A stretch of 64,000 bases of DNA from Elusimicrobiota bacterium. Its GTDB lineage: Bacteria; Elusimicrobiota; Elusimicrobia; Elusimicrobiales; UBA9959. The notes beneath the pieces were generated by a model, which was not told where the DNA came from, did not search any database, and was given only the letters and a program-made list of their open reading frames with translations. Positions 1,829-16,976 of this stretch are shown piece by piece. The position numbers were made by a program, and so were the translations under genes. The stretch lies in the NCBI GenBank assembly GCA_030651035.1, contig JAUSCK010000173.1, forward strand, positions 4,177 to 68,176, given 5' to 3'. Position 1 is the stretch's first letter, and the number at the start of each line of letters is the position of its first letter.

Positions 1829-3820
1829 CTATATCTGCTGAAAACCAATTCCACTCAAATACTGATAGGTTGAGTCATAATAACCCGGCGCTCGTGTATG
1901 GTCATCGGGATCACCTTGTGGGACCACAATTACCATCCCTTGCCGGGCACGGGTAAGGAGCACGCGGTAGGCGTTCTTTTGGTAGTCTTTGCGCACATCT
2001 TTAAGGATGCGCAGCCATTTGTTGCCTTTAAAGGACCAGTTCTCCCAACCATTAGGCGTGTGGCGCATATCTGCGTCCCATGTGACGCAGGCCCAATCAA
2101 GCTCCAAGCCCTGCACATGGAATTCAGTGGCGACATCTTCCAAATAATAGGACGAGCGCACATCGTCCTTGCCGGCCAGGAACCAATCGACCGGGTCAAC
2201 AGGCGATTTCACGTCGATAGCGTAGGGTTTAAGGCGCTCGGCCTGGGAAGATACAACTATCCCATAGCGCTCGGTGCCCTGCGCACGCGCCTTAAGCCAG
2301 TCCTTGGCCTTCTTCAGGTCGCGGGTAAGCACTATGGGGTAGTTGGTGCCAATGGCCTTAAGCGTTTCCTTGGCAGAAGCGGCCTCCAAGTCCAACACCT
2401 TCTTAACTAGCTCGGAAACGCGCTCTGCACGGAAAGAGCGCAGTGAAACAGCCAGGTGCAACTCGTCCTTATATTCCACCTTTAGCGACGTCTCATTTAA
2501 TTTGGTAATAATCGAACCAGCGCCGTACTCGCTGTCGGTAAGGCGCGGCGAAATGTGGACGTCCCAGCCGGGGAACTTGCGCAGGAGCGAGTCTATCCAC
2601 TCGCTTATGCCGGCCTCGCCCGTGTTTATTTCTTGGCCGCCGCCCACCAGGCACACTATCACGGCCCAGTCCGGGTGCCGGTCCAGGCAGGAGATTAAAA
2701 ACTCCGGCTCGGATTGGTTAAAACCTTTGATCTTCTTCTTACGGCTCATGAAGTTGGCCGTCTGCTGCAGGTCCCAGGCCCGTTGGGCCTCGTCGAATAG
2801 CGCCACGTGCTCTATGGGAGGCTTCGCATCTATCAGGCATGAATCTCGGAAATTGTGAACATTCTGGACGAACATTTTAACTTCACTGAAGGCCGCCCCT
2901 TTTCTTACCTTGTTGCCCTTGGCCTTTTCATGCAGAACCCTGTCTCGGGCGAGGGCCTCGCGCAGAACCGCCACAAGCGGGCCATTGCCGGAAAGAAATA
3001 CGCTGTATAACTCATCGTCCTTGTTTATGTGTGTGGTGGCGATATTAAGGCCCACAAGGGTTTTCCCCGCGCCGGGCACGCCCGTTACAAAGCAGATGGC
3101 CTTGCGCGAGCCTGCACGGGCGGCGGATATTATTTGCGCCACGCTGGCAGAGGTCTGGGCCAGGTTTATGGCGCCAGCATCGCTTCTGGAGATCTCCGCT
3201 ACTTTATGCCCGCGGTATAAAGCCATGGCGGCTTCTACTATTGTAGGAGTAGGGGAGTAGCGTCCGCCCTCCCAGGTTTCTGCGGCTATGCTAGGGCCGT
3301 CCGTAAAGGATAGAGCCTTGGAAATAACATCTTCAATTTGTGAGGAAGCACATTTTATAGGGAAACAAAGCTTTGAATTATTTGCAGAGAAACCGATATT
3401 CACCGGTTGGGGCTGTGCCTGAGTGGAGACAAGCACCGGGGCCACATATTTGCCGTGGCTGGTTTCGTGGAAATTTGAAAGGTCCAGCGCGTAATCCAGC
3501 ACTTGGTCTACAGCATAAGCCGAAAAATCCTGGGCGCCAACTTTAAATTCCAGAACAAAGATAACGCGCTCGATTATGAGCACAACGTCTATCCTACGCC
3601 CCATGCGCGGGATGGAGTACTCAAAGTAGATCTTGCCCTGTTTCCCATTCAGACATTTTTGAAGAATAGATATCTGCTCCACCCAAGCTCCAGTTTGTTC
3701 TGGTGTGACTGGAAACCCCTCAGTGGCACTGGCGGTACTTAGACTACCAATTATCGCTGCTGAGGTAGTGGAGCAGAAGCGTGGGATTGAGTCTGAATAA
3801 TATTCTCTTTTCATAAACAC
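1829..3820 (-). CDS. DUF2075-family P-loop NTPase (Schlafen-helicase-like) with N-terminal nuclease-like module
   Basis: 663 aa. It has an N-terminal [19 protein letters not shown] (D..E.K) motif, Walker A GVPGAGKT, Walker B ALFDEAQ, and a C-terminal [17 protein letters not shown] motif. Confidence 0.85.
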
Positions 3821-3826
3821 GTAGTC

Positions 3827-4750
3827 TCACTCTAGATAGCGATTTTGATTATGCCAACTCAAGAAATCAGCAGACGGGCGGTCTTGTATTCTTTCAGGTA
3901 CAGCTTTTAATTCTGTTCCATCCAAGGCATAGTAATCTTTTCCGTTTTCAAATTCCTGACGAATACGTTTGCTAATCAAAACATGCGAGTCTGGAGTAAC
4001 TGTAACATATCCTTGATCAAACAATATGTGCAGGTCTGACCGGAGCAAAAGGCCATTTCTTATAAGATGTGGTCCTTGCTCAGCATACGGCTTTATATGG
4101 GCAGCTTCAAGCACCGGGAGAGTCTTCTCTCCGGAAATAGCACACCTACGATGATAGCTTTCGGTCACCAACACTCTAAATGCGCCCTGTCCAAGACGCG
4201 GTTTAACTAAAAGAGGATTTCCATAGCGTGCGCTCGGCTCTGCAGCAGGATATGTTAGTGATGTCACAACTGTCGCAGGAATGCGTTCACGAAGCGCATT
4301 AATTAAATAAGTGGACTCTTGCTCAGAAGACTCGTAGCTTTTACCTGTGACAATGTTTTTCTTAAAGCTGTCCGGAACAGGAATCCAATCGGATTCCTCC
4401 AGAAAGAATGGCTGAGTCAAAATAATACAACCTATCTGGGGGTCATGGCTCATGTTCTCTCGGCGATATTTGCGAATGCGGTCCATAAACTGTGCAATAG
4501 ATTCAACTCCATTCGCTCTTCCAAACGCCTTCCAAGCCATAGAAACTGGCAAAAAAGAATGCCGAACAAAATATCCTCCGCCCACAATAAAGTTTCTGGG
4601 ATGATGCAGTTTGAATAAGAAAAGACCTTCCTCAGGCAATACCCGGAAGACAGTATTCCCTCCAGGCTGCCAGAAATTAACTTCTTCTGGCTTGAGCGCC
4701 TTAAGTTGGTTATACCAATCGCTATCTGTAATGCCGATGTAGAATTTCAT
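3827..4750 (-). CDS. HNH_2-type endonuclease with distinct N-terminal domain
   Basis: 307 aa. The C-terminus reads GQGAFRVLVTESYHRRCAISGEKTLPVLEAAHIKPY...NGLLLRSDLHILFDQGYVTV. The N-terminus reads MKFYIGITDSDWYNQL...NFWQPGG...LFLFKLHHP. It sits 6 nt upstream of the DUF2075 gene. Confidence 0.8.
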   Translation of the reverse strand: MKFYIGITDSDWYNQLKALKPEEVNFWQPGGNTVFRVLPEEGLFLFKLHHPRNFIVGGGYFVRHSFLPVSMAWKAFGRANGVESIAQFMDRIRKYRRENMSHDPQIGCIILTQPFFLEESDWIPVPDSFKKNIVTGKSYESSEQESTYLINALRERIPATVVTSLTYPAAEPSARYGNPLLVKPRLGQGAFRVLVTESYHRRCAISGEKTLPVLEAAHIKPYAEQGPHLIRNGLLLRSDLHILFDQGYVTVTPDSHVLISKRIRQEFENGKDYYALDGTELKAVPERIQDRPSADFLSWHNQNRYLE

Positions 4751-4797: not shown

Positions 4798-6012
4798 CTA
4801 TAAGGTTTTGTCGGACGCAAACGGTCCTTTTTCAGCCATCATCTTTTTTAGCACTTCTCTTTGTTCAGGAAATCCAAATGCGTAAGAAATACTTGTAGCA
4901 ACCTCCAGTATTTTCTCGAACACGATATCCTTATCAAAAAAATCCTCCCCTTTGAAAACCACCTCCCATTCCAAAGAAGAATCGACAGATGTCTTATTCG
5001 AGCCATAGAAATGATAACCAGGAGGCGTGCAAGGGATAGTCGTAATACCTAAGATTTTATCAATCTTAATGATAAATCTAACCGCACCAGTATACCCCCC
5101 GGCTTTACACAGTTTTTCACCAACTCGTGCAAACAAATCCATAAACATTATTATTCGGTTTAGTGGGAGTTCTTGAGATTGAATCGCTTTGTTTTCTCCA
5201 AGCTTCTGAATCCCCATGTCTTTCTTAAGGAAAATGTAGCCATAATGATTAATCTCAAGATATTTAAAATCCCCAGTCTCTTGGCGATAGTCCATATAGG
5301 ATGCCCCACCTTGGACAGTGCGCAGTGACTCTATCATGTCGGGGAAGCTTACCCCATATCCTTGAGTCCAAACCCTTTCTCTTACTTTAGGCATTTCACT
5401 TTCTTTAAATAATGGAGAATAAGGGAACAGCGGCCCCATAGACATCGAAACAACCCCAAAGGGAATATCTAATTTATTTAGTTTTTCATTATTCCTGCAT
5501 CGTGCATTTATAGATTCCAAGATCTTCTCTCTTAAAATTTCTGCTTTTTGTTTACGATTCTTTAGCCATTCAACCCTTTCCAGCGTTGCCAAATCATCAG
5601 GTGTATTTACATCTCCAGTTCTAACATATGGACGATTGTGGCGAATCGTATATGGCGTATCTATTTGCTCAGCGATTCTGATTACGACAAAACATTTGTC
5701 ATCTTTAATGCAAACAGCTGTTTCAGGATTTACTGGTGGGTAAATATTGTCCGAAACAATTCGCATGACCCTTTCTGAAAGACCATCTACATATTTAATA
5801 CCATTGGATGTCTGATCAGGGAACCCATCAGCATCCTTAACACCAATTATTACTATCCCGCCATAAGTATTCGCGAAAGCACAGATTGTTTTAGGCAAAC
5901 TGCTCGAAAAGTCTTCTTTGTAATCGAGGTTTACACTTTCTCTAACTTTCAGAGCAATAAACCCCATGCAATCATCATAAGTGATATCAGTAATCTTTTT
6001 AGAAAATATCAT
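4798..6012 (-). CDS. AlbA_2 (Schlafen-core-like) domain protein
   Basis: The N-terminus reads ESVNLDYKEDFSSSLPKTICAFANTYGGIVIIGVKD. The ATG at 6012 forms an ATGA overlap with the upstream stop (6011-6009). The gene is markedly AT-richer than the upstream gene. Confidence 0.75.
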   Translation of the reverse strand: MIFSKKITDITYDDCMGFIALKVRESVNLDYKEDFSSSLPKTICAFANTYGGIVIIGVKDADGFPDQTSNGIKYVDGLSERVMRIVSDNIYPPVNPETAVCIKDDKCFVVIRIAEQIDTPYTIRHNRPYVRTGDVNTPDDLATLERVEWLKNRKQKAEILREKILESINARCRNNEKLNKLDIPFGVVSMSMGPLFPYSPLFKESEMPKVRERVWTQGYGVSFPDMIESLRTVQGGASYMDYRQETGDFKYLEINHYGYIFLKKDMGIQKLGENKAIQSQELPLNRIIMFMDLFARVGEKLCKAGGYTGAVRFIIKIDKILGITTIPCTPPGYHFYGSNKTSVDSSLEWEVVFKGEDFFDKDIVFEKILEVATSISYAFGFPEQREVLKKMMAEKGPFASDKTL

Positions 6013-8264
6013 AAGGCCTCGCACTGCCCCACCACTTCCGCTACCACCATGAACTCTTCGTCTTCCGCGTTCGGGATCACTATGGGGCTGTAGGCCGGGT
6101 TCAGCGGCTGCAGGATTATTTCTTCGTGCTGCCAGGCGCCGTCGGGGGCGTATTTCTTTTTGCTGGTATATTTCTTAGCCAGAAAACTTCTGATGAAGTT
6201 TTCCACCCGCATAGCGGGCGCCCTGCGGGTGGCATACACCCCGTCGGGCCTGGCGCGCATAGCGCTTGGCCCTCCGCCCGCTTCGCGGGTAATTCCGCAA
6301 GCGGAATTAGGGATAACGGTGTAGCTGCCGCCGGCGTCTGGGTCGGCTATGCTGCTGTGCTGTACCAGTACCAGCTTGTTCTGGCGGCTGCCGCCCGGGT
6401 TGGCGCGGAATACGCAGTAGTCGCCGTCCTGCAATTTGGGCTCCATGCTGCGCCCGGCCACTTGCGCGGCGAACATGTTGTGGTCGGGCTTCAGGCCGGG
6501 AGGGCATTTTATCCAGCCAAGCGGCTCTACGGCCATGCCGCGGCCGAAATTGCCGCAGGCGGCCTGCAGGCTGAAGACGGGGAGGTAAGCCACAAATTTC
6601 AGGGCGGCGGCCACTTCTTCTTCTATCCTGAAAAGCACTTTAAGCGCGGCAGCCGCGGGCGCGGCTTGGGCTGCCGGCGCGGGCGCGAGGAGGGCCTTAA
6701 AGTGCCGGGCGGTTTCTTCGTCCGTAAAGTGCACGTAGCAGCCCTTCGCCTGAAAACTTCTGCTGAAGTTTTCCGCCCGCATAGCGGGCGCCCTTCGGGA
6801 GGCATACACCCCCTCGGGCCGGGCGCGCATAGCGCTGGGCCCTCGGCCCGCTGCGCGGGGAATCCTGCGAAGCGCAGGATTCGGGTTAAGGCCCCTGGTC
6901 ATAAGGGTGCGGTAGGTGGAGGACTCCGCCAGCTCCAGGCCCTGGCAGGTGGGGCGCCCGGGATCCTTCTTGCTGAGCCAGGGCCAGCAGTAGCCGGCCA
7001 CCACGCGGGCTTTGTTGCTGGTGTTCTTCTGGCGGATAAGGGCATGCAGTTGGGCGGGGTCGTCGAGCACCCTGAAATCGTAGTCGCCGGTATCCAGCGT
7101 GTCGTTGGCGCTGGCTTTGGCTATGCCAAGGGCATAGTCCAGCCAGGCCAGGTAGCCGGGGGAGAGGGGGCAGGTTACTTTCTCCCTTGGGCGGTGGTCA
7201 CGCATAAACCGCATAGCGGTTTTGCGCGACCCCGCCTCGGCGATTTTCGATGAAAAATCGCCTCCGGTCTTGCGGCCCGGACGCGAGGCGTAATTATGCC
7301 TCGCTCTAAAGCCGGGCCTCACTTCGTCCACAATAAGGCAGTCGTACTCGTTGGGCCGGGCCTTGTGGAAGGTTTCGGAACTGCGGAACATGTTATCTAT
7401 GCGGCTGCGTTTTAGTGTACCGGCAAGTTTGGCCGCGTACACAAGGCGGGGCGCGGAATTGCGCGTTACGTACTGCTGGTTGCCCCGCGCCGGTAAGTTC
7501 CTGCTGGAACTTACCCCCCGCATAGCGGGGGCCCCTTCGGGGCGGCATACACCCCCTCGGGCCTGGCGCGCATAGCGCTTGGCCCTCGGCCCGCTGCTGC
7601 GGGGAATCCAGCCGTGCCCGGCAGGATTCGGGTTAAGCATCCCGGCCAGGCTGTCGGCCAGGTTATTGGACGGTTTTATTTTGCCGTTGTTTCTAAGGAA
7701 GGGGAGGCGCTTGGCCGAAAAGTTTCTGCTGAAACTTTTTCCCCGCATAGCGGGGACCCGTGCCGGGCGGCATACACCCTCTCGGACACTGCGCGCATAG
7801 CGCTTGGTCCTCGACCCGCTGCTGCGGGGAATTCTGCCTGGCACGGCAGAATTCGGGTTATAAGTCCAGGCCTGGTAGGAAGGGTGCGGGGTCTCCTGCG
7901 GGCCGCCTTTGAAGGTGGTTACTACTATGCCGTCCTTGGCGGTGAGGTCCGCCTGCTGCCACTGCTTTAGTTCCACCAGGATGGCGGTGTCGGTGTGTTG
8001 GGCGTCGGTGCCGGTGAGGATGAAGTCTATGCGCTTGCTGGAGCGCGGGATGTGGTATTCGATGGCCACGCCGGCGGTGGCGGGGATGGCGGGGTCTTCC
8101 AGTACGGCATGCATGTAGCGCAACGAGTTGGTCCAGGAGTCTATTTCCGAGCGCTTGGTGCCGTGGCCGGTTACGGCTTTGAAGGTGTCGAAGATGATCC
8201 CGCCGATGTCGTTGCCCATGACATCCTGCCGGAAGCGGGCCTTGGTGGCGGTGTAGACTATCAC
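6009..8264 (-). CDS. DUF2075-like / C-terminal S24 (LexA/UmuD-type) peptidase-like fusion ORF, repeat-riddled and probably degenerate
   Basis: 751-aa open frame. It has the DUF2075 N-terminal motif (KRIDFILTG...AILVELKQW, HPSYQAW), CLIVDE (Walker B-like), YLAWLDYALGI, and a C-terminal GRSMEPKLQDGDYCVF motif. I found no Walker A. Repeat copies sit where the P-loop and the post-DExH segments are expected. Confidence 0.6.
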   Translation of the reverse strand: MIVYTATKARFRQDVMGNDIGGIIFDTFKAVTGHGTKRSEIDSWTNSLRYMHAVLEDPAIPATAGVAIEYHIPRSSKRIDFILTGTDAQHTDTAILVELKQWQQADLTAKDGIVVTTFKGGPQETPHPSYQAWTYNPNSAVPGRIPRSSGSRTKRYARSVREGVCRPARVPAMRGKSFSRNFSAKRLPFLRNNGKIKPSNNLADSLAGMLNPNPAGHGWIPRSSGPRAKRYARQARGGVCRPEGAPAMRGVSSSRNLPARGNQQYVTRNSAPRLVYAAKLAGTLKRSRIDNMFRSSETFHKARPNEYDCLIVDEVRPGFRARHNYASRPGRKTGGDFSSKIAEAGSRKTAMRFMRDHRPREKVTCPLSPGYLAWLDYALGIAKASANDTLDTGDYDFRVLDDPAQLHALIRQKNTSNKARVVAGYCWPWLSKKDPGRPTCQGLELAESSTYRTLMTRGLNPNPALRRIPRAAGRGPSAMRARPEGVYASRRAPAMRAENFSRSFQAKGCYVHFTDEETARHFKALLAPAPAAQAAPAAAALKVLFRIEEEVAAALKFVAYLPVFSLQAACGNFGRGMAVEPLGWIKCPPGLKPDHNMFAAQVAGRSMEPKLQDGDYCVFRANPGGSRQNKLVLVQHSSIADPDAGGSYTVIPNSACGITREAGGGPSAMRARPDGVYATRRAPAMRVENFIRSFLAKKYTSKKKYAPDGAWQHEEIILQPLNPAYSPIVIPNAEDEEFMVVAEVVGQCEAL
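6174..6314 (+). repeat. Hairpin-rich interspersed repeat, copy A (in-frame inside ORF 6009..8264)
   Basis: It contains hairpin GAAAACTTC-tgat-GAAGTTTTC, CCGCATAGCGGG, GGCATACACCCC, GCGCGCATAGCGC and terminal hairpin TAATTCCGC/GCGGAATTA. It translates in the gene frame as 47 aa (141 nt). Confidence 0.85.
6744..6891 (+). repeat. Hairpin-rich interspersed repeat, copy B
   Basis: Same architecture as copy A, with GAAAACTTC-tgct-GAAGTTTTC, CGCCCGCATAGCGGGCG, GCGCGCATAGCGC and GAATCCTGCG-aag-CGCAGGATTC. Confidence 0.85.
7201..7320 (+). repeat. Divergent hairpin-rich segment, possibly a related repeat family member (copy E)
   Basis: It contains AAACCGCATAGCGGTTT, GGCGATTTTC-gatg-AAAAATCGCC and CGAGGC-gtaattat-GCCTCG. 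It shares the CCGCATAGCGG core, but the module order differs from copies A-D. Confidence 0.45.
7484..7637 (+). repeat. Hairpin-rich interspersed repeat, copy C
   Basis: It contains GGTAAGTTCC-tgct-GGAACTTACC (a compensated stem), CCGCATAGCGGGG, GCGCGCATAGCGC and GAATCCAGCCG...CGGCAGGATTC. Confidence 0.85.
7711..7864 (+). repeat. Hairpin-rich interspersed repeat, copy D
   Basis: It contains AAAAGTTTC-tgct-GAAACTTTT (a compensated stem), CCGCATAGCGGGG, GCGCGCATAGCGC and GAATTCTGCC-tggcac-GGCAGAATTC. Confidence 0.85.
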
Positions 8265-8611
8265 TTCAGCCCCGTGTACTTGGTGTGGCGGCCTTTGGCT
8301 TTGGAGACGGGGTATTTCTTGGCGTTCTTCTTGAGTTTTTTGCCGAGGGCGGCGAGCGGGTCTATTTTGAGGTCGTGGCTTAGGAGGAGGACCCAGTAGA
8401 GGACGTCGGCGAGTTCTTCGGAAATTTCCGATTTATTGGTTTTTATGTGCTTTTCTATTTCTGCGGAGTTCTTCCACTGGAAGTGCTCCAGCAGTTCGGC
8501 GGCTTCGAGGGAGAGGGAGATGGCTACGTCCTTGGGATTGTGGAACTGCGCCCAGTCGCGCGCGTCCCGGAAAGCGATGATCTTTTTAGTGAGGTTTTCG
8601 ATGCCGCTCAT
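8261..8611 (-). CDS. MazG-like nucleoside triphosphate pyrophosphohydrolase (small all-alpha type)
   Basis: 116 aa from the internal ATG at 8611, with a GGGGG RBS upstream. The sequence runs MSGIENLTKKIIAFRDARDWAQFHNPKDVAISLSLEAAELLEHFQWK...EELADVLYWVLLL. The upstream 90 codons of the track ORF are Arg/Pro-rich junk. Its stop overlaps the next start (8264/8261). Confidence 0.85.
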   Translation of the reverse strand: MSGIENLTKKIIAFRDARDWAQFHNPKDVAISLSLEAAELLEHFQWKNSAEIEKHIKTNKSEISEELADVLYWVLLLSHDLKIDPLAALGKKLKKNAKKYPVSKAKGRHTKYTGLK

Positions 8612-8655
8612 GTTGCCCCCAGTGCTGCCCCGTCGCCTTGATTCTACCTTTTTCC

Positions 8656-8878
8656 CTACACCCCTAAGAACTTTGCCGTACTCCCGGTTTTGCCCGGAAT
8701 TATCTCCAGCCTGGTTTCTACCAGGGTTTTGAGTTCTTGGACGTGGGAGATTATGCCTACCAGGCGGCCGTCTTTGCGGATTTCTTCCAGGGCGCGCATG
8801 GAGAGGTCCAGGGTTTCGGGGTCCAGGCTGCCGAAGCCTTCGTCTATGAAGCTGGTGTTCATTTTTAGGCCGCCTGTA
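8656..8878 (-). pseudogene. sbcC: sbcC 3'-terminal fragment (diverged duplicate of 11148..~11370)
   Basis: It translates to GGLKMNTSFIDEGFGSLDPETLDLSMRALEEIRKDGRLVGIISHVQELKTLVETRLEIIPGKTGSTAKFLGV. The full SbcC C-terminus reads GGVKMDTIFIDEGFGSLDSDTLDLTMRALDEIRKDGRLVGIISHVQELKTLVETRLEITPGKTGSTAKFLGV. The nucleotide sequences are similar but not identical. Confidence 0.85.
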
Positions 8879-8981
8879 CAATTTATACTCTGTGGCGTAC
8901 CGGCGTCCTGGTACTTAAGCAGGTGCGCAAGCCGGCCAAAATCGGAAGATTTCATAAAATCATCGGAAGATTATCGTGAAA

Positions 8982-11147: not shown

Positions 11148-14100
11148 TTAAACTCCCAGGAACTTCGCCGTACTCCCGGTTTTGCCCGGGGTTATTTCCA
11201 GCCTGGTTTCTACCAGGGTTTTGAGTTCCTGGACGTGGGAGATTATGCCTACCAGGCGGCCGTCTTTGCGGATTTCATCCAGGGCGCGCATGGTCAGGTC
11301 CAGGGTGTCCGAGTCAAGGCTGCCGAAGCCTTCGTCTATAAAGATGGTGTCCATCTTTACGCCGCCGGCGTAGCCCTGCGCGACGTCGGATAGCCCCAGG
11401 GCGAGCGAAAGCGAGGCCAGGAAGCTTTCACCGCCTGAGAGGTTGGCGGCCGGCCTTGAAGTGCCCGTATAGCTGTCGAACACCTCCAGCTCAAGGCCGC
11501 CGGCACTGCGGCCGTCTGAAAGCTCCCGGAGGCGGCGCAGGCTGAACCTGCCCTGGCTCATTATATTCAGCCGGTCGGAAGCCTGGAGCAGGACATCGTC
11601 CAGGAAGCCCGCCAGGACAAAGCGCTGGAAAGACAGGTTCCAGCTGTTTTTCCCGTTGGCAACATTGGCCACCTGGCCATACACCGCGAACTCCTGGGAA
11701 AGCTTGGCAATTTCTTTCTGCTCTTTGGCTACGGCGGCAAAGACGCGGTTTGATTCGGCCAGCGCGGCCTCCGCTTCCGCCAGAATCTTCTGGGAACCCT
11801 CGGCCGCTGCTTCAGCTACTTCTGAATCTGCTGTTGTCTTTGCCAGGTTGGGGCGTTTAAGATCTTTGACCCCGGCTTTGGCGCGGTCGGAACGGTTTTT
11901 GGCGGAGGCCAGGGCTTTGCCGTGGTCGTCTATAGCCTTCTTCAGGTCTTTGCGGGCCCGCTCTTCCAGTTTTGCGGCTTCATAATCCTTTTCACCGCTG
12001 AAGCCGCCTTTGGTTATAGCGGAAATAAAATCCTTTTTTTGTTTTACAGCCGCGGCCGCGGCTTTTACAACGGTAGACTTGGCCAGGTCTGTTTTTTTAG
12101 CCGCGCCGGAATGCTCCTCGCCGGCTTTCTTGTCCGCAGCCTTAGCCTTTTTAAAGGCCTCTGTGAGTTGCGCGGCCTCTTCCTCTGTTTTTTCTATGGC
12201 GGCCTCAAGGCTGTCCAGGTCTGAGATGCCCTTGGGCAGGCGCTGGCGGGCGGACACGGCTTCAGCCTTCAGGCCGGAGGCTTTTTCCCTCTCGGCGCTC
12301 AGGGCTGTTGTTTTTTTCTTTTGGCTGGCTTCAAGTGAAAACCTGGCGTTTTTGGCGCCGGTTAGTTTTTCTTTGGCGGTTTCACCGGCTTTTATAGCCG
12401 CTTTTAATTCGGCGACTTTGTCTTTTAAGGTTTCCAGGCGGCCGGCTGATGCGCGCCAGCCTTTGGGGCCCTCGGCTATAACGGCTTCTTCCGACTCTAT
12501 GGTGGCCTTAAGGGCGGCCAGGGCGCTTTCGGCTTCGCCAAGGCGCTTGTTTTCCTGGTCCAGCTCTTCCCTGGCTTCCTTTAAACGGGCTTCTATTGCG
12601 GCCCTTTCATCTTCAGGCAGCGCGCCTTTGGTGGCGGCAGGCTTAGGGTGCTCTTTTGAGCCGCAAACCGGACAAGGGACGCCGTCCTCGAGTGCGGCGG
12701 CCAGGTGGGCGGCGAAGACGCGCTCCAGTTTAGCTATAGCCGCGGTGTGCTCCGCTTCTATCTTTTCAACTTTTGCTTTCTTTTTTGTGACGGAATCGGA
12801 CAGGGAGTCTTTGCCGGCTTTGAGGACCTTACGCTTTTCCTCTAAGCCGCTTAACTTCTCTGAAGACTTGGAAAGGCGTTTTTCCAGTTCCAGCTGGCTT
12901 TCGGCCGCGGATAAGGCTTTGGAGGCTTCCCCGGCTTTGTCCTTTGTGGTTTCTAAAAGCGCGATGTCTTTTTCTACAAAGCACAGTTCCTGTTTAAGCG
13001 CTTCGGCTTCGTCATTATATTTAGCGCAGGCCTGCTGCGCGGCTTCAAGCGCGGCGGCTTTGGAAGAATATTCCTTCAGCACCGGCTTCAGATCTTTTAA
13101 CTTGGAAGCGGCGGCCTCTAAGTCTTTAATGCGCGGCTCGGCTTTTTCGGCTTTTTCCAGGTCCTTCTTAGCTTTTAGCCCGGCGGCTTCAGCTTCTTTA
13201 AGCTCCTGCAGGCTTTCAGCTTCTTCCTCTTTGGTTTTGGACAGAAGACGCTCGCTCTCCTGCCAGAGCGCCTCGTAAGACTTGAAGGAAACTGTTTTGT
13301 CAGCCCGCTCCAGGGCTTTCTTCTGATCCTCTATTTCAGCCTCGACGGCCTCTATGCCTTTAAGCTCCGCGGCGGCCGCGTCTAATTCTTTGAACTTCGC
13401 TTCGCAGGCCTGCGCTTCCTGCAAAGCTTTACGGGCGGCCTGGGCCGCTTTTTTATCTTCGGAGGCGAGCTGGTCTTTGCCGGTTTTTCCGGCTTTCTGG
13501 GTTTCTATTTTTTCTTTAAGCTGCTCTTCTGTTTCCACTTCGGCGTTAGCCAAGGCGCCTTTCATTGCCGACGAGATTTCAGCCAGCTGGCTTACTAAAG
13601 CGTCCGCTTTTATTTTGAGGGCGTCCTGTATCAGTTTGTAATAGCCTGTTTTGAAGAGGGCTTCCAGGATGGGCTCCCTGTCTTTGGCGCCGGCTGAAAG
13701 GAATTTCTGGAACTTGTTCTGCGGCAGCATTATGATCTGGGTGAACTGGTCGGCCTTCAGGCCCAGCAGGGCCTCTACCCGCTCCGTGCATTCGGTGCTG
13801 GACAGGTCGCCGGACAATTTCCAGTCCCCGCTTGTGTACTCCCAAAGCGCGGCCTCGCCCTGGCTGCCCGTGAAGCCTTCCCCGCGTTTTTTCTTAACCT
13901 GCTGGGAGGGGGCGCGGCGTACTTTGTACTTTTTACTGCCCAGGGAGAACTCGAACACCACGGAGACCTCGGTGCCTTTCTCGGCGAAGTCGCTGGCCAT
14001 CCTGTCGCCCTGGCGCTCCTGGCCGGAGGTTTTGCCGAACAGGGCGTAGCAGATGGCGTCCAGGATGGTGGTTTTGCCTGAGCCGGTTGGCCCGGTGATC

Positions 14101-14195
14101 AGGAACAAAGACTTTTCGCCCAGGGCGGTAAAATCTATTACCGTGCCGGACTTGTAAGGGCCGAAAGCGTTTATCTCGAGTTTAATGGGTCTCAT
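11148..14195 (-). CDS. sbcC: SbcC exonuclease ATPase subunit (Rad50-like)
   Basis: 1015 aa. It has Walker A GPTGSGKTT, a long Ala/Glu/Lys coiled coil, zinc hook CPVCGS, signature LSGGESF and Walker B IFIDEGFGSLD. Confidence 0.95.
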   Translation of the reverse strand: MRPIKLEINAFGPYKSGTVIDFTALGEKSLFLITGPTGSGKTTILDAICYALFGKTSGQERQGDRMASDFAEKGTEVSVVFEFSLGSKKYKVRRAPSQQVKKKRGEGFTGSQGEAALWEYTSGDWKLSGDLSSTECTERVEALLGLKADQFTQIIMLPQNKFQKFLSAGAKDREPILEALFKTGYYKLIQDALKIKADALVSQLAEISSAMKGALANAEVETEEQLKEKIETQKAGKTGKDQLASEDKKAAQAARKALQEAQACEAKFKELDAAAAELKGIEAVEAEIEDQKKALERADKTVSFKSYEALWQESERLLSKTKEEEAESLQELKEAEAAGLKAKKDLEKAEKAEPRIKDLEAAASKLKDLKPVLKEYSSKAAALEAAQQACAKYNDEAEALKQELCFVEKDIALLETTKDKAGEASKALSAAESQLELEKRLSKSSEKLSGLEEKRKVLKAGKDSLSDSVTKKKAKVEKIEAEHTAAIAKLERVFAAHLAAALEDGVPCPVCGSKEHPKPAATKGALPEDERAAIEARLKEAREELDQENKRLGEAESALAALKATIESEEAVIAEGPKGWRASAGRLETLKDKVAELKAAIKAGETAKEKLTGAKNARFSLEASQKKKTTALSAEREKASGLKAEAVSARQRLPKGISDLDSLEAAIEKTEEEAAQLTEAFKKAKAADKKAGEEHSGAAKKTDLAKSTVVKAAAAAVKQKKDFISAITKGGFSGEKDYEAAKLEERARKDLKKAIDDHGKALASAKNRSDRAKAGVKDLKRPNLAKTTADSEVAEAAAEGSQKILAEAEAALAESNRVFAAVAKEQKEIAKLSQEFAVYGQVANVANGKNSWNLSFQRFVLAGFLDDVLLQASDRLNIMSQGRFSLRRLRELSDGRSAGGLELEVFDSYTGTSRPAANLSGGESFLASLSLALGLSDVAQGYAGGVKMDTIFIDEGFGSLDSDTLDLTMRALDEIRKDGRLVGIISHVQELKTLVETRLEITPGKTGSTAKFLGV

Positions 14196-15737: not shown

Positions 15738-15791
15738 TCATTTTCGGCGGCCAGGGCCGAAGGCGTTTATCTCTAGTTTAATGGGTCTCAT
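15738..15791 (-). pseudogene. sbcC: sbcC 5' stub (first ~13 codons) left behind downstream of full-length sbcD
   Basis: MRPIKLEINAFGPGRRK* compares with the SbcC N-terminus MRPIKLEINAFGPYKSG. The ATGA overlap with the sbcD stop is preserved. Homology to 14157-14195 ends near 15754. Confidence 0.75.
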
Positions 15792-16933
15792 TCTTCTTCC
15801 CCCTGCGCTTTTTCAGCCACGGCTACGCCTTCTTTAAAGGCGGCCGCCTGCTCTTTGGACAGCTCAGCCGGGGTAACCTGCTTATAGAACGAGGTGAAAA
15901 GTTCCAGCGGGCCTTTACCGCACTGTTCGCGGGTCATGGCGACACCGGCGGACGGGGCGAAGAGCGGCCTTTCTATATGCAGGGTATTGGGATAAACTTC
16001 GCGGAGGCGGCCCATGGCGTCGAACACGGGGCCGTCGTCCAGGACCCTGGCTAAAATATAATCATCGCTGCGCTTGTCGCCGCGGCCGGCTTTAATTATT
16101 TCGTCAAGCTTGCCTTCTACAACACGCAGCTCCCGGCGCAGGGTTATGGGGATATCTTTCAGGGCGCAAGCGCCTTTGGCGTCTATTTCGCCCAGGATGA
16201 ACCGCTTTTTATGGTCTTTTTCGGAGAAGGAATATTTATAAAGGGAGCCGGAATAGACGATATTGTCCGCCTGCTTCTGGGGACCGTGCAGATGGCCCAG
16301 CGCGGTATAGCTGAAGCCCGAGAAAATGCTTTTATCCACAGCTTCGCTGCCGCCGATGGAGAGCGGGCGCTCTGATTCGCTGGTGGCGCCGCCGGTCAGG
16401 AAGACGTGGGCTAGGGCTACCGAGCGGGTGTTTTTGGGGTGGGCAGCTTTCAGGCGCGCAACCAGGGCGGCGAGGCCGGCGTTCTGGTCTTTCAGGCTTG
16501 CGTCTTTAAGGCGGTCGCGGAAGAGTTCGGTGCCGGCATAGGGGAGAGGATAGACCAGGACTTTTCCGTGCTTGTCCTGCAGTTCTACCGGTGAGATATC
16601 GGCTTTCAGGTCGCCGCGGATGAAGAGGTTGTTTGATTCAAAGACCCTTGAGCCGAAGTCCAGGCGCTCGGGGCTATCGTGGTTGCCGGCGATGAGGATG
16701 ACGGGGATTTTCAGGGTGAGGACCAGCGTGGACAGGGTTTCGTCGCAAAGCTGCACGGCTTCCGGCGGCGGGACGGCCCGGTCATAAATATCTCCGGAGA
16801 TGAAGATGGCGTCGGGCTTTTCGGCCTTGGCGAGTTCAAGAAGCTGGGCTAAGGCATGGGCCTGGTCGTCTATCAGGCGGTTCTCGAATAGGAGTTTACC
16901 CAGGTGCCAGTCGGATGTGTGGATGAATTTCAT
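15788..16933 (-). CDS. sbcD: SbcD nuclease subunit (Mre11-like)
   Basis: Start taken at ATG 16933 (MKFIHTSDWHLGK). It has the metallophosphoesterase motifs DWHLG, SGDIYD, GNHD and GHLH. Confidence 0.92.
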   Translation of the reverse strand: MKFIHTSDWHLGKLLFENRLIDDQAHALAQLLELAKAEKPDAIFISGDIYDRAVPPPEAVQLCDETLSTLVLTLKIPVILIAGNHDSPERLDFGSRVFESNNLFIRGDLKADISPVELQDKHGKVLVYPLPYAGTELFRDRLKDASLKDQNAGLAALVARLKAAHPKNTRSVALAHVFLTGGATSESERPLSIGGSEAVDKSIFSGFSYTALGHLHGPQKQADNIVYSGSLYKYSFSEKDHKKRFILGEIDAKGACALKDIPITLRRELRVVEGKLDEIIKAGRGDKRSDDYILARVLDDGPVFDAMGRLREVYPNTLHIERPLFAPSAGVAMTREQCGKGPLELFTSFYKQVTPAELSKEQAAAFKEGVAVAEKAQGEEE

Positions 16934-16943
16934 AGTATGAGTA

Positions 16944-16976
16944 ATTATAGCGCTGCCCTGCGACAAGGGGTTGTCG
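16944..16976 (-). promoter_or_regulatory. Palindromic box CGACAACCCCTTGTCG + 11 nt + TATAAT (sbcD promoter)
   Basis: On the minus strand the order is CGACAACCCCTTGTCG, CAGGGCAGCGC, TATAAT, 10 nt, ATG (16933). Confidence 0.6.

Follow-up and report, generated by a model that had tools for sequence, protein, structure and literature searches.

A MITE family of Elusimicrobiota and its probable repeated, frame-preserving insertion in a DUF2075-S24 defence-type gene

How a single gene can take up one hairpin-rich repeat after another and still be read as one open reading frame (ORF) is the question raised by a 64,000-nucleotide stretch of DNA from an Elusimicrobiota bacterium (assembly GCA_030651035.1, contig JAUSCK010000173.1, positions 4,177 to 68,176 of the forward strand; referred to throughout as the window). 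The initial annotation, made without database searches, described within a 751-codon ORF four repeats of one orientation, antisense to the gene, together with a fifth, divergent copy, and likened them to Rickettsia palindromic elements (RPEs). Our analysis indicates that a miniature transposable element with inverted repeats (MITE) native to Elusimicrobiota has very probably inserted at least four times in this one DUF2075-S24 defence-type gene, joined once by a second element, with the reading frame kept. Below, L-numbers denote fetched genome and metagenome loci, P-numbers proteins including orthologues, A to D the MITE copies of the window and E its copy of the second family (Table 1).

The four MITE copies, whose limits were set with the family consensus as a guide, are 134–143 nt long and all lie on the + strand of an ORF read from the minus strand, which bears out the antisense arrangement first described and refines its limits. 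All four copies contain CCGCATAGCGGG, GGCATACACC and GCGCGCATAGCGCT without a mismatch; the stems differ between copies but stay paired, as had been noted for the window and as holds across the family (61 copies, see below). Folding of each copy on either strand gives z = -4.6 to -6.3 against dinucleotide shuffles. An nhmmer profile of A–D revealed no fifth copy within the 64-kb window, nor did GCGCGCATAGCGCT match outside A–D with up to two mismatches allowed, in agreement with the earlier reading.

The presumed fifth copy is not a diverged member of this family. Element E belongs to a second, unrelated hairpin-rich family, with 97% identity to L022:704-829, 94% to L061:2592-2717 and 79% to a copy in L043, the closest of these relatives (94–97%) lying on other contigs. 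The ends of this family read GTCACGC.../...GGCCTCAC, there is no evident target duplication in the copies compared, and its only likeness to family 1 is the CCGCATAGCGG hairpin motif. Element E folds with z = -6.8 and -7.3. The E-type peptide VRPGFRARHN.. is also found in L149 and L022 (at another site) and in P0140, a protein of 154 aa, where a family 2 fragment (RPGFRARHNYVSRPGRK) is nested in a copy of family 1, which in turn is read in-frame within an epimerase-like gene. This nesting of one family within the other suggests that both are mobile.

That the repeats entered the gene as mobile elements is apparent from protein and DNA alignments with repeat-free orthologues, as the initial annotation had recommended, by which insertion and deletion points could be defined. 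Four orthologues (P0003, P0004, P0006 and P0019) are free of all repeats, and in them the sites A, B and F, which are filled in the window, P0001, P0002 or P0010, are empty, A and B cleanly so. Copy A is a pure insertion of 138 nt in the S24 domain between GGSYTV and KKYTSKK, where the orthologues read ACCGT(A)AAGAAA unbroken, and it splits an S24 strand directly before the KK of TVKKY. Copy B is a pure insertion of 141 nt at host GGCC-TTAA-GGGC (TRGL/KGCYV), a site also occupied in P0010 (loci L047 and L073), L149 and L185. The idea of in-frame insertion thus holds in its simple form for A and B, while host sequence has been lost alongside C, D and E. Copy C follows SLAGML, and 13 nt from its 5' end a host deletion (junction ~7464-7490), situated between CCAG microhomologies, takes out the Walker A region (GGPGTGKS). 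Copy D follows YQAWTY and is succeeded by a host deletion of ~220 nt (junction 7683-7712); this insertion and the same junction are present in P0001, P0002 and L143, with a related copy at the same site in P0010 and L185. Element E occupies the place of the host segment after LIVDE (motif II), and ~75 residues after motif II are deleted. The prediction that elements sit at the expected place of the P-loop and after the DE of motif II was therefore correct, for C and E respectively. Together with two further losses (Table 1), the deletions of the window gene number four or more, all of them in-frame. P0001 and P0002 carry a further element copy before KHVLIVEGGPGTGKS, and P0010 has, besides its copies at the D and B sites, deletions of its own.

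The window comes from a metagenome-assembled genome (MAG), and repeats can mis-join contigs; the segments might alternatively be ancestral protein sequence. The D junction is, however, common to four independent assemblies (window, L003, L072 and L143) and the insertion at site B is shared by the window, L047, L149 and L185, which, as far as sequence comparison can show, excludes an assembly artefact, and close orthologues lack the segments exactly at YTAR-type sites, so that we attach next to no probability to either alternative. Where copies at the same site were compared for D and B (window, L003, L072 and L047), the whole 5' hairpin differs and the flanks are near-identical: at the D site the paired arms are AAAAGTTTC/GAAACTTTT for one copy and GGTAAGTTCC/GGAACTTACC for its counterpart, and at the B site one hairpin starts with GAAAACTTC and the other with GAAAGTTGC. 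Such differences point to gene conversion among the copies or to a site that was used more than once. Beside element E lies a filler of ~39 nt (window 7146-7196) that has no counterpart in intact orthologues; the filler stretch CCCCTCTCC is found at the same place in P0010 (L073 gene, ~codon 330), which has a deletion there and no element. The filler may be the footprint of an earlier insertion.

What kind of element this is becomes clear beyond the window, where a wider search for copies, in genic and intergenic positions, had been proposed. A pattern scan of 185,579 species genomes yielded 68 loci, almost all in Elusimicrobia/Elusimicrobiales MAGs, and a different pattern yielded at least 120 loci in metagenome contigs. 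The fetched loci contain 144 distinct copies of 129–181 nt, most of them intergenic, and individual genomes carry element subfamilies of their own. The conserved ends, CCTGAA.../...TTCAGG, form imperfect terminal inverted repeats (TIRs; CCTGAAnnCTnCAG), the outer CCTGAA/TTCAGG being nearly invariant and the 5' CCTGAAAACTTCAG agreeing with the reverse complement of the 3' end CCTGAATCCTGCAG at 11 of 14 bases. The flanks are YTAR 4-mers, identical on both sides in 42 of the 113 copies having both ends (TTAA 23, CTAA 10, TTAG 8 and CTAG 1, hence 19 of the 42 other than TTAA). Among these 113 copies a C at position 1 of the right flank is seen only where the left flank also has C (16 vs 0, Fisher p = 6e-12), position 4 is associated too (p = 0.013), and the next base outward is not (21% identity). 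With TIRs, a target duplication, small dispersed copies, no coding capacity, and presence or absence at orthologous sites, the family 1 repeats are MITEs. The initial comparison with RPEs missed these ends and YTAR duplications, which mark the elements as ordinary MITEs of the cut-and-paste type. Duplication of a 4-bp YTAR target is characteristic of IS5 (PMC10359306), and, no transposase partner having been found in the fetched DNA, it is by the duplication motif only that the family is assigned to the IS5 type.

Short forms of ~130–144 nt stand beside a long form of ~179 nt with an additional 49 nt in the 3' hairpin loop. This loop insert of ~49 nt (AATAATTCTGTYCCCTGATTTT..TTGAAC) is conserved in L012, L020, L067 and ~30 others, and none is present in the window. 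At the intergenic copy in L048 (7236-7378), the opposite-strand sequence 7 bases beyond the 3' flanking repeat is tRNA-like, by eye only. Copy B had no BLAST match in the plasmid or phage collections.

Other modes of transposition fit the ends less well. A TA-only (IS630-type) duplication is less likely, as the outer bases of the 4-mer are duplicated too, and an IS200/IS605-like model (insertion 3' of CTTN, no duplication), derived from the four window copies, was dropped since ~70 copies show TIRs and duplicated YTAR. More generally, an element of the REP/BIME or IS200/IS605 type would be mobilised in single-stranded form by a Y1 (HUH) transposase recognising subterminal hairpins. Hairpins of this kind are present at both ends, the covariation described below fits recognition of folded single strands, and family 2 is without a clear duplication. 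Family 1, however, has TIRs and direct 4-bp duplications, which Y1 transposition does not make, and shows neither a one-sided fixed tetranucleotide nor a GTAG or CGTC head; we therefore consider a Y1 element very unlikely.

The stems were examined on a structure alignment of 61 distinct copies, in which RNAalifold and a hand-drawn structure agree. The fold is a chain of six or seven covarying hairpins, and 97.9% of cells form standard pairs. Changes on both sides are seen in 15 of 37 pairs, compared with 6.0 +/- 1.4 in column shuffles, none of 500 of which reached the observed value, and shifting the pairing partners abolishes the signal. The 5' hairpin occurs as GAAAACTTC, GAAAGTTGC, GAAAATTGC, GGTAAGTTCC, GAAAACCGC and others, each with a perfectly matching arm, and the 3' hairpin covaries at four positions. 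In addition, a long-range helix of three pairs (columns 2-4 with 55-57) brings base 3 of the 5' end together with a base ~50 nt downstream and takes the forms CCU/AGG (46 copies), CCG/CGG (11) and CCA/UGG (3), with the pair UA, GC or AU, respectively; one switch of a long-range pair lies between window copy A and L022, which are otherwise 94.5% identical. This helix is hard to ascribe to local palindrome correction, and constraint therefore acts on a folded single strand, be it DNA or RNA. The claim of selection on structure is upheld in so far as pairing is kept by compensatory changes; the covariation nevertheless belongs to transposon subfamilies, without establishing that the locus yields an RNA.

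It might still be argued that the element is primarily a functional structured RNA (antisense, cis-regulatory or mRNA-stabilising) and mobile only secondarily, given the strength of the covariation, the three pair types of the long-range helix and the loop motifs (GCATA), which are nearly invariant in 61 copies from many MAGs. Pair 77-91 is G-U on the + strand in 52 of the 61 copies and A-C on the other strand, which favours the + strand as the folded one, although this is the evidence of one pair and both strands fold equally well. Rfam 15 gave no match in the window at gathering score and none at E <= 1 in 6100-7950, ARAGORN found no tRNA-like gene, and a promoter scan detected no promoter-like site, terminator-like matches being no more frequent than chance predicts and none of them associated with the elements. 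As TIRs, duplications and genome-specific bursts are transposon traits, a primary role as RNA appears improbable.

How the frame stays open can be followed from the ORF and its translations, which bear out the observation that A and B (..GPSAMRARP..APAMR..) are read in another frame than C and D (..KRYARQ..GVCRP..). The antisense orientation noted at the outset has a plain explanation: in 35 of 61 copies no frame of the element-sense strand is free of stops, whereas the opposite strand has one to three open frames in 48 of 61, which leaves the antisense orientation as the only one that can be translated throughout. With two, three, two and three of the three frames open on the gene strand for A, B, C and D, the absence of stops is unremarkable, and the remarkable feature is length. 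Element and duplication together measure 138, 141, 147 and 147 nt in A–D, and E measures 126 nt, all divisible by three, a property shared by only 55 of 113 copies family-wide and not by the common 130-nt intergenic form. Related alleles show the same pattern. L040 and L126 are remnants of 137–142 codons in which the N-terminal 47 and C-terminal 40 residues are fused in-frame with the element inside; L140 is a 591-codon ORF with an element in place of residues 20–247; L149, of 809 codons, holds one element per family, both standing in for host sequence of about their own length, with Walker A and DEAH kept; and L185 and P0010 combine two elements with three in-frame deletions.

One reading of such alleles is that, as with RPEs, the element peptides are tolerated as surface loops or linkers and the host protein remains functional, possibly altered. 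All events being in-frame, this would suit L149 with its motifs and full length, P0001 and P0002, in which the P-loop is retained and an element lies immediately upstream, a ratio of nonsynonymous to synonymous substitution (dN/dS) of ~0.4, and the in-frame copies seen also in other genes, namely a caspase-like gene (L024, P0132), a GDP-sugar epimerase-like gene (L122, P0133, P0140), a large ORF (L029, L155) and a membrane protein (L110). Against it, the window gene lacks the Walker A loop as well as ~75 residues that followed motif II, the S24 strand is interrupted by copy A, and remnants of the size of L040 and L126 (137–142 aa) cannot be helicases. Furthermore, an exhaustive search with the copy B peptide found only 12 proteins in 1.84 billion cluster representatives, mostly short ORFs, indicating that in-frame copies in large proteins are rare outside DUF2075 genes; a word-indexed search returned 9 short ORFs only and missed P0001, and is insensitive for this query. 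Functional hosts with tolerated inserts are thus an unlikely explanation, and the proposed resemblance to RPEs extends to the in-frame reading and not to the state of the host, which with Walker A and ~75 residues gone and two further in-frame deletions is no intact protein.

The recurrence of the element in one gene family was counted from two scans that used the element sequence only. It lies within DUF2075-S24 genes at 3 of 68 genome loci (L047, L022 and L040) and at 7 of 119 metagenome loci among the matches listed (L093 = L123, L126, L140, L143, L149, L182 and L185), and in L061 and L051 it is found in another DUF2075 subfamily, directly after Walker B. Among the matches listed in the two scans, about 5–7% of copies are in DUF2075-type helicase genes, and counting the window, P0001, P0002 and P0131 there are at least 10 distinct sites in such genes, the ORF being mostly kept open. 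For a 2.4-kb gene and an assumed genome of a few megabases the excess over chance is ~two orders of magnitude. Copies of sequence clusters 8, 35, 36, 37 and 38 are solely in DUF2075-type genes, and those of cluster 9, where flanks are identifiable, in or beside DUF2075-type or weakly UvrD-like helicase genes. Every resident copy checked has a length that is a multiple of three, in contrast to the 130-nt intergenic form.

Such a bias could be a selected interaction, in which a MITE lineage has adapted to nuclease-helicase defence genes (DUF2075-S24, other DUF2075 and UvrD-like) as translatable, frame-neutral passengers. It could turn off, in-frame and reversibly, a defence gene that is costly or toxic to its own cell, precise excision restoring function, or transposition bursts could survive only where the DNA-damage-sensing S24-helicase is knocked out. 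We give this adaptation little credence; the most economical account of the gene-family bias is local re-insertion, together with inheritance of a dispensable gene and a frame filter.

In the favoured reading of repeated MITE insertion, the element would be moved in trans by a DDE transposase of IS5 type. Microhomology-type deletions beside three elements have taken away the Walker A loop and the stretch following motif II, presumably leaving a dead helicase. Frame-breaking variants may have been removed by selection, the most likely reason being that translation through the ORF shields the overlapping downstream genes from polarity and not that a working protein is made; the overlap with both upstream and downstream genes, through coupling and polarity, would be the likeliest ground for continued translation. 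The hairpins may have been kept through descent of the copies from transposition-competent masters whose folded ends would serve mobility, and the concentration of copies in the DUF2075 family would reflect local re-insertion and repeated survival in a dispensable, costly defence gene.

Several observations weigh against this reading. The flank duplications of A–D are degenerate (Table 1), and a paired-end search of the 1.24 Mb of fetched loci found no autonomous element with matching ends, its one candidate (L067 748-2925) enclosing an SPFH-type gene between two separate copies. A generic target preference for DUF2075 genes is contradicted by the element-free, intact paralogue at 1829-3820. 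Frame-broken states exist in L022 and L061, so that the kept frame reflects a filtering of variants, not the way in which the element inserts. As a test for a pseudogene dN/dS was uninformative, with ~0.4 for host segments against orthologues and 0.34–0.39 between intact orthologues, and relaxed constraint on the host gene is not demonstrated by it. The polarity account of frame preservation, the likeliest we can offer, is a putative one.

In the host ORF, Pfam recognises PF09848 (Schlafen group 3/DUF2075) over residues 365–433 only, in addition to PF00717 (S24), while its orthologues are ~800 aa long with complete domains; the intact orthologue P0003 matches the PADLOC models PDC-S41, AbiO and Nhi. 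The gene overlaps both its neighbours (Table 1), and the overlap with the AlbA_2 ORF makes translational coupling or polarity possible. The pairing of a MazG-like with a DUF2075-S24 gene recurs in L073, the locus of P0010, where the gene set is similar (SbcC/SbcD-like, AAA_14/DUF4143, MazG-like and DUF2075-S24). Neighbouring genes of the window also include HNH_2 nucleases, SbcC/SbcD-like genes and the second DUF2075/SLFN-g3 helicase (1829-3820, minus strand), which has a full-length Pfam match and is intact and repeat-free 2 kb from the invaded gene. An HNH_2 nuclease gene follows each helicase (820-1854 and 3827-4750), giving the island two HNH-helicase modules that differ in G+C (about 0.50 vs 0.63). 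An AAA_14/DUF4143 gene lies between the SbcC-like (11148-14195) and SbcD-like (15788-16966) genes. Apart from the full SbcC-like gene, a 99-aa ORF (8656-8955, minus strand) resembles by eye the C-terminal end of SbcC, unconfirmed and with no family given by Pfam. Opposite the host gene, a 375-codon ORF (6126-7253, + strand) spans A and B and is most likely a by-product of high G+C and stop-poor repeats. The phosphoglucomutase encoded in the window shares 100% identity with one from an Elusimicrobiota MAG at NCBI, whereas an exact look-up in the contig collection gave no record of its gene or of the host ORF. The far part of the window (38083-62224) holds three very large ORFs of 2469, 2778 and 1872 codons.

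Table 1. Coordinates of the repeat elements, additional host deletions and overlapping genes in the window.
Feature	Position	Strand	Description
MITE copy A	6179-6312	+	134 nt; flanking 4-mers TTAG (6175-6178) / ATAA (6313-6316)
MITE copy B	6749-6885	+	137 nt; flanks TTCG (6745-6748) / TTAA (6886-6889)
MITE copy C	7490-7632	+	143 nt; flanks CGCG / TTAA
MITE copy D	7715-7857	+	143 nt; flanks TTGG / TTAT
Element E	7197-7322	+	126 nt; second, unrelated hairpin-rich repeat family
In-frame host deletion	junction 6939-6966	-	~37 codons lost
In-frame host deletion	junction 6909-6935	-	~55 codons lost, AESS filler; also in L140
Host ORF	6009-8264	-	751 codons, open; DUF2075/SLFN-g3 (Schlafen-type) helicase with C-terminal S24 (LexA-like) peptidase; helicase core degraded
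MazG-like ORF	8261-8881	-	upstream of host ORF; stop overlaps host start by 4 nt; operon context
Schlafen AlbA_2 ORF	4798-6024	-	downstream of host ORF; start overlaps host end by 16 nt

These results document a MITE family in Elusimicrobiota, in which we found no description of MITEs in the literature, and provide a 61-copy alignment with clear covariation that is ready for modelling. They add a second, phylogenetically remote example of the RPE phenomenon, in which transposon sequence is translated inside host proteins. For annotation they carry a warning, as such ORFs look intact and are probably non-functional. If recurrence and the kept frame reflect selection, they would also bear on how costly immunity genes are switched off or lost, and on how operon polarity shapes gene decay.

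RPEs are palindromic repeats of ~100–150 bp that are inserted in-frame in protein-coding genes and translated with the host protein (PMC10969869). Copies A–D resemble them in being in-frame in a coding gene and translated, a likeness of insertion behaviour. The Elusimicrobiota element differs in its phylum, in its clear TIRs and YTAR duplications, in that most of its copies are intergenic, and in the concentration of its in-frame copies in one gene family; its window host, instead of tolerating the inserts, has lost catalytic motifs (Walker A and the region after motif II), and the L040 and L126 alleles are reduced to remnants. Closer in kind are QMITE1 and QMITE2 of Coxiella burnetii and other bacterial MITEs (Correia/NEMIS, ERIC and BOX), which are small, non-coding and strongly structured, with TIRs and direct repeats, and which occur in tens of dispersed copies, occasionally in-frame inside or at the ends of ORFs (PMC5896051; PMC10969869). 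The present element is unrelated to these in sequence and host, has a 4-bp YTAR duplication, and reaches up to five elements per 2.3-kb gene, recurring in homologous genes of many MAGs. With the IS5 group it shares the duplication motif and its length (PMC10359306), but it has no transposase gene, and its ends are not tied to any named insertion sequence. Unlike REP/BIME or IS200/IS605-derived elements, it has direct 4-bp repeats on both sides in addition to TIRs. Insertion sequences are repeatedly found within immunity genes, inactivating cas genes (PMC10359306), whereas the window elements are non-autonomous MITEs, several to one gene, with the frame kept and not broken. In-frame translated MITE sequence is therefore already known; what is unusual here is the number of elements in one gene, their recurrence in a gene family and the preserved frame of dead alleles.

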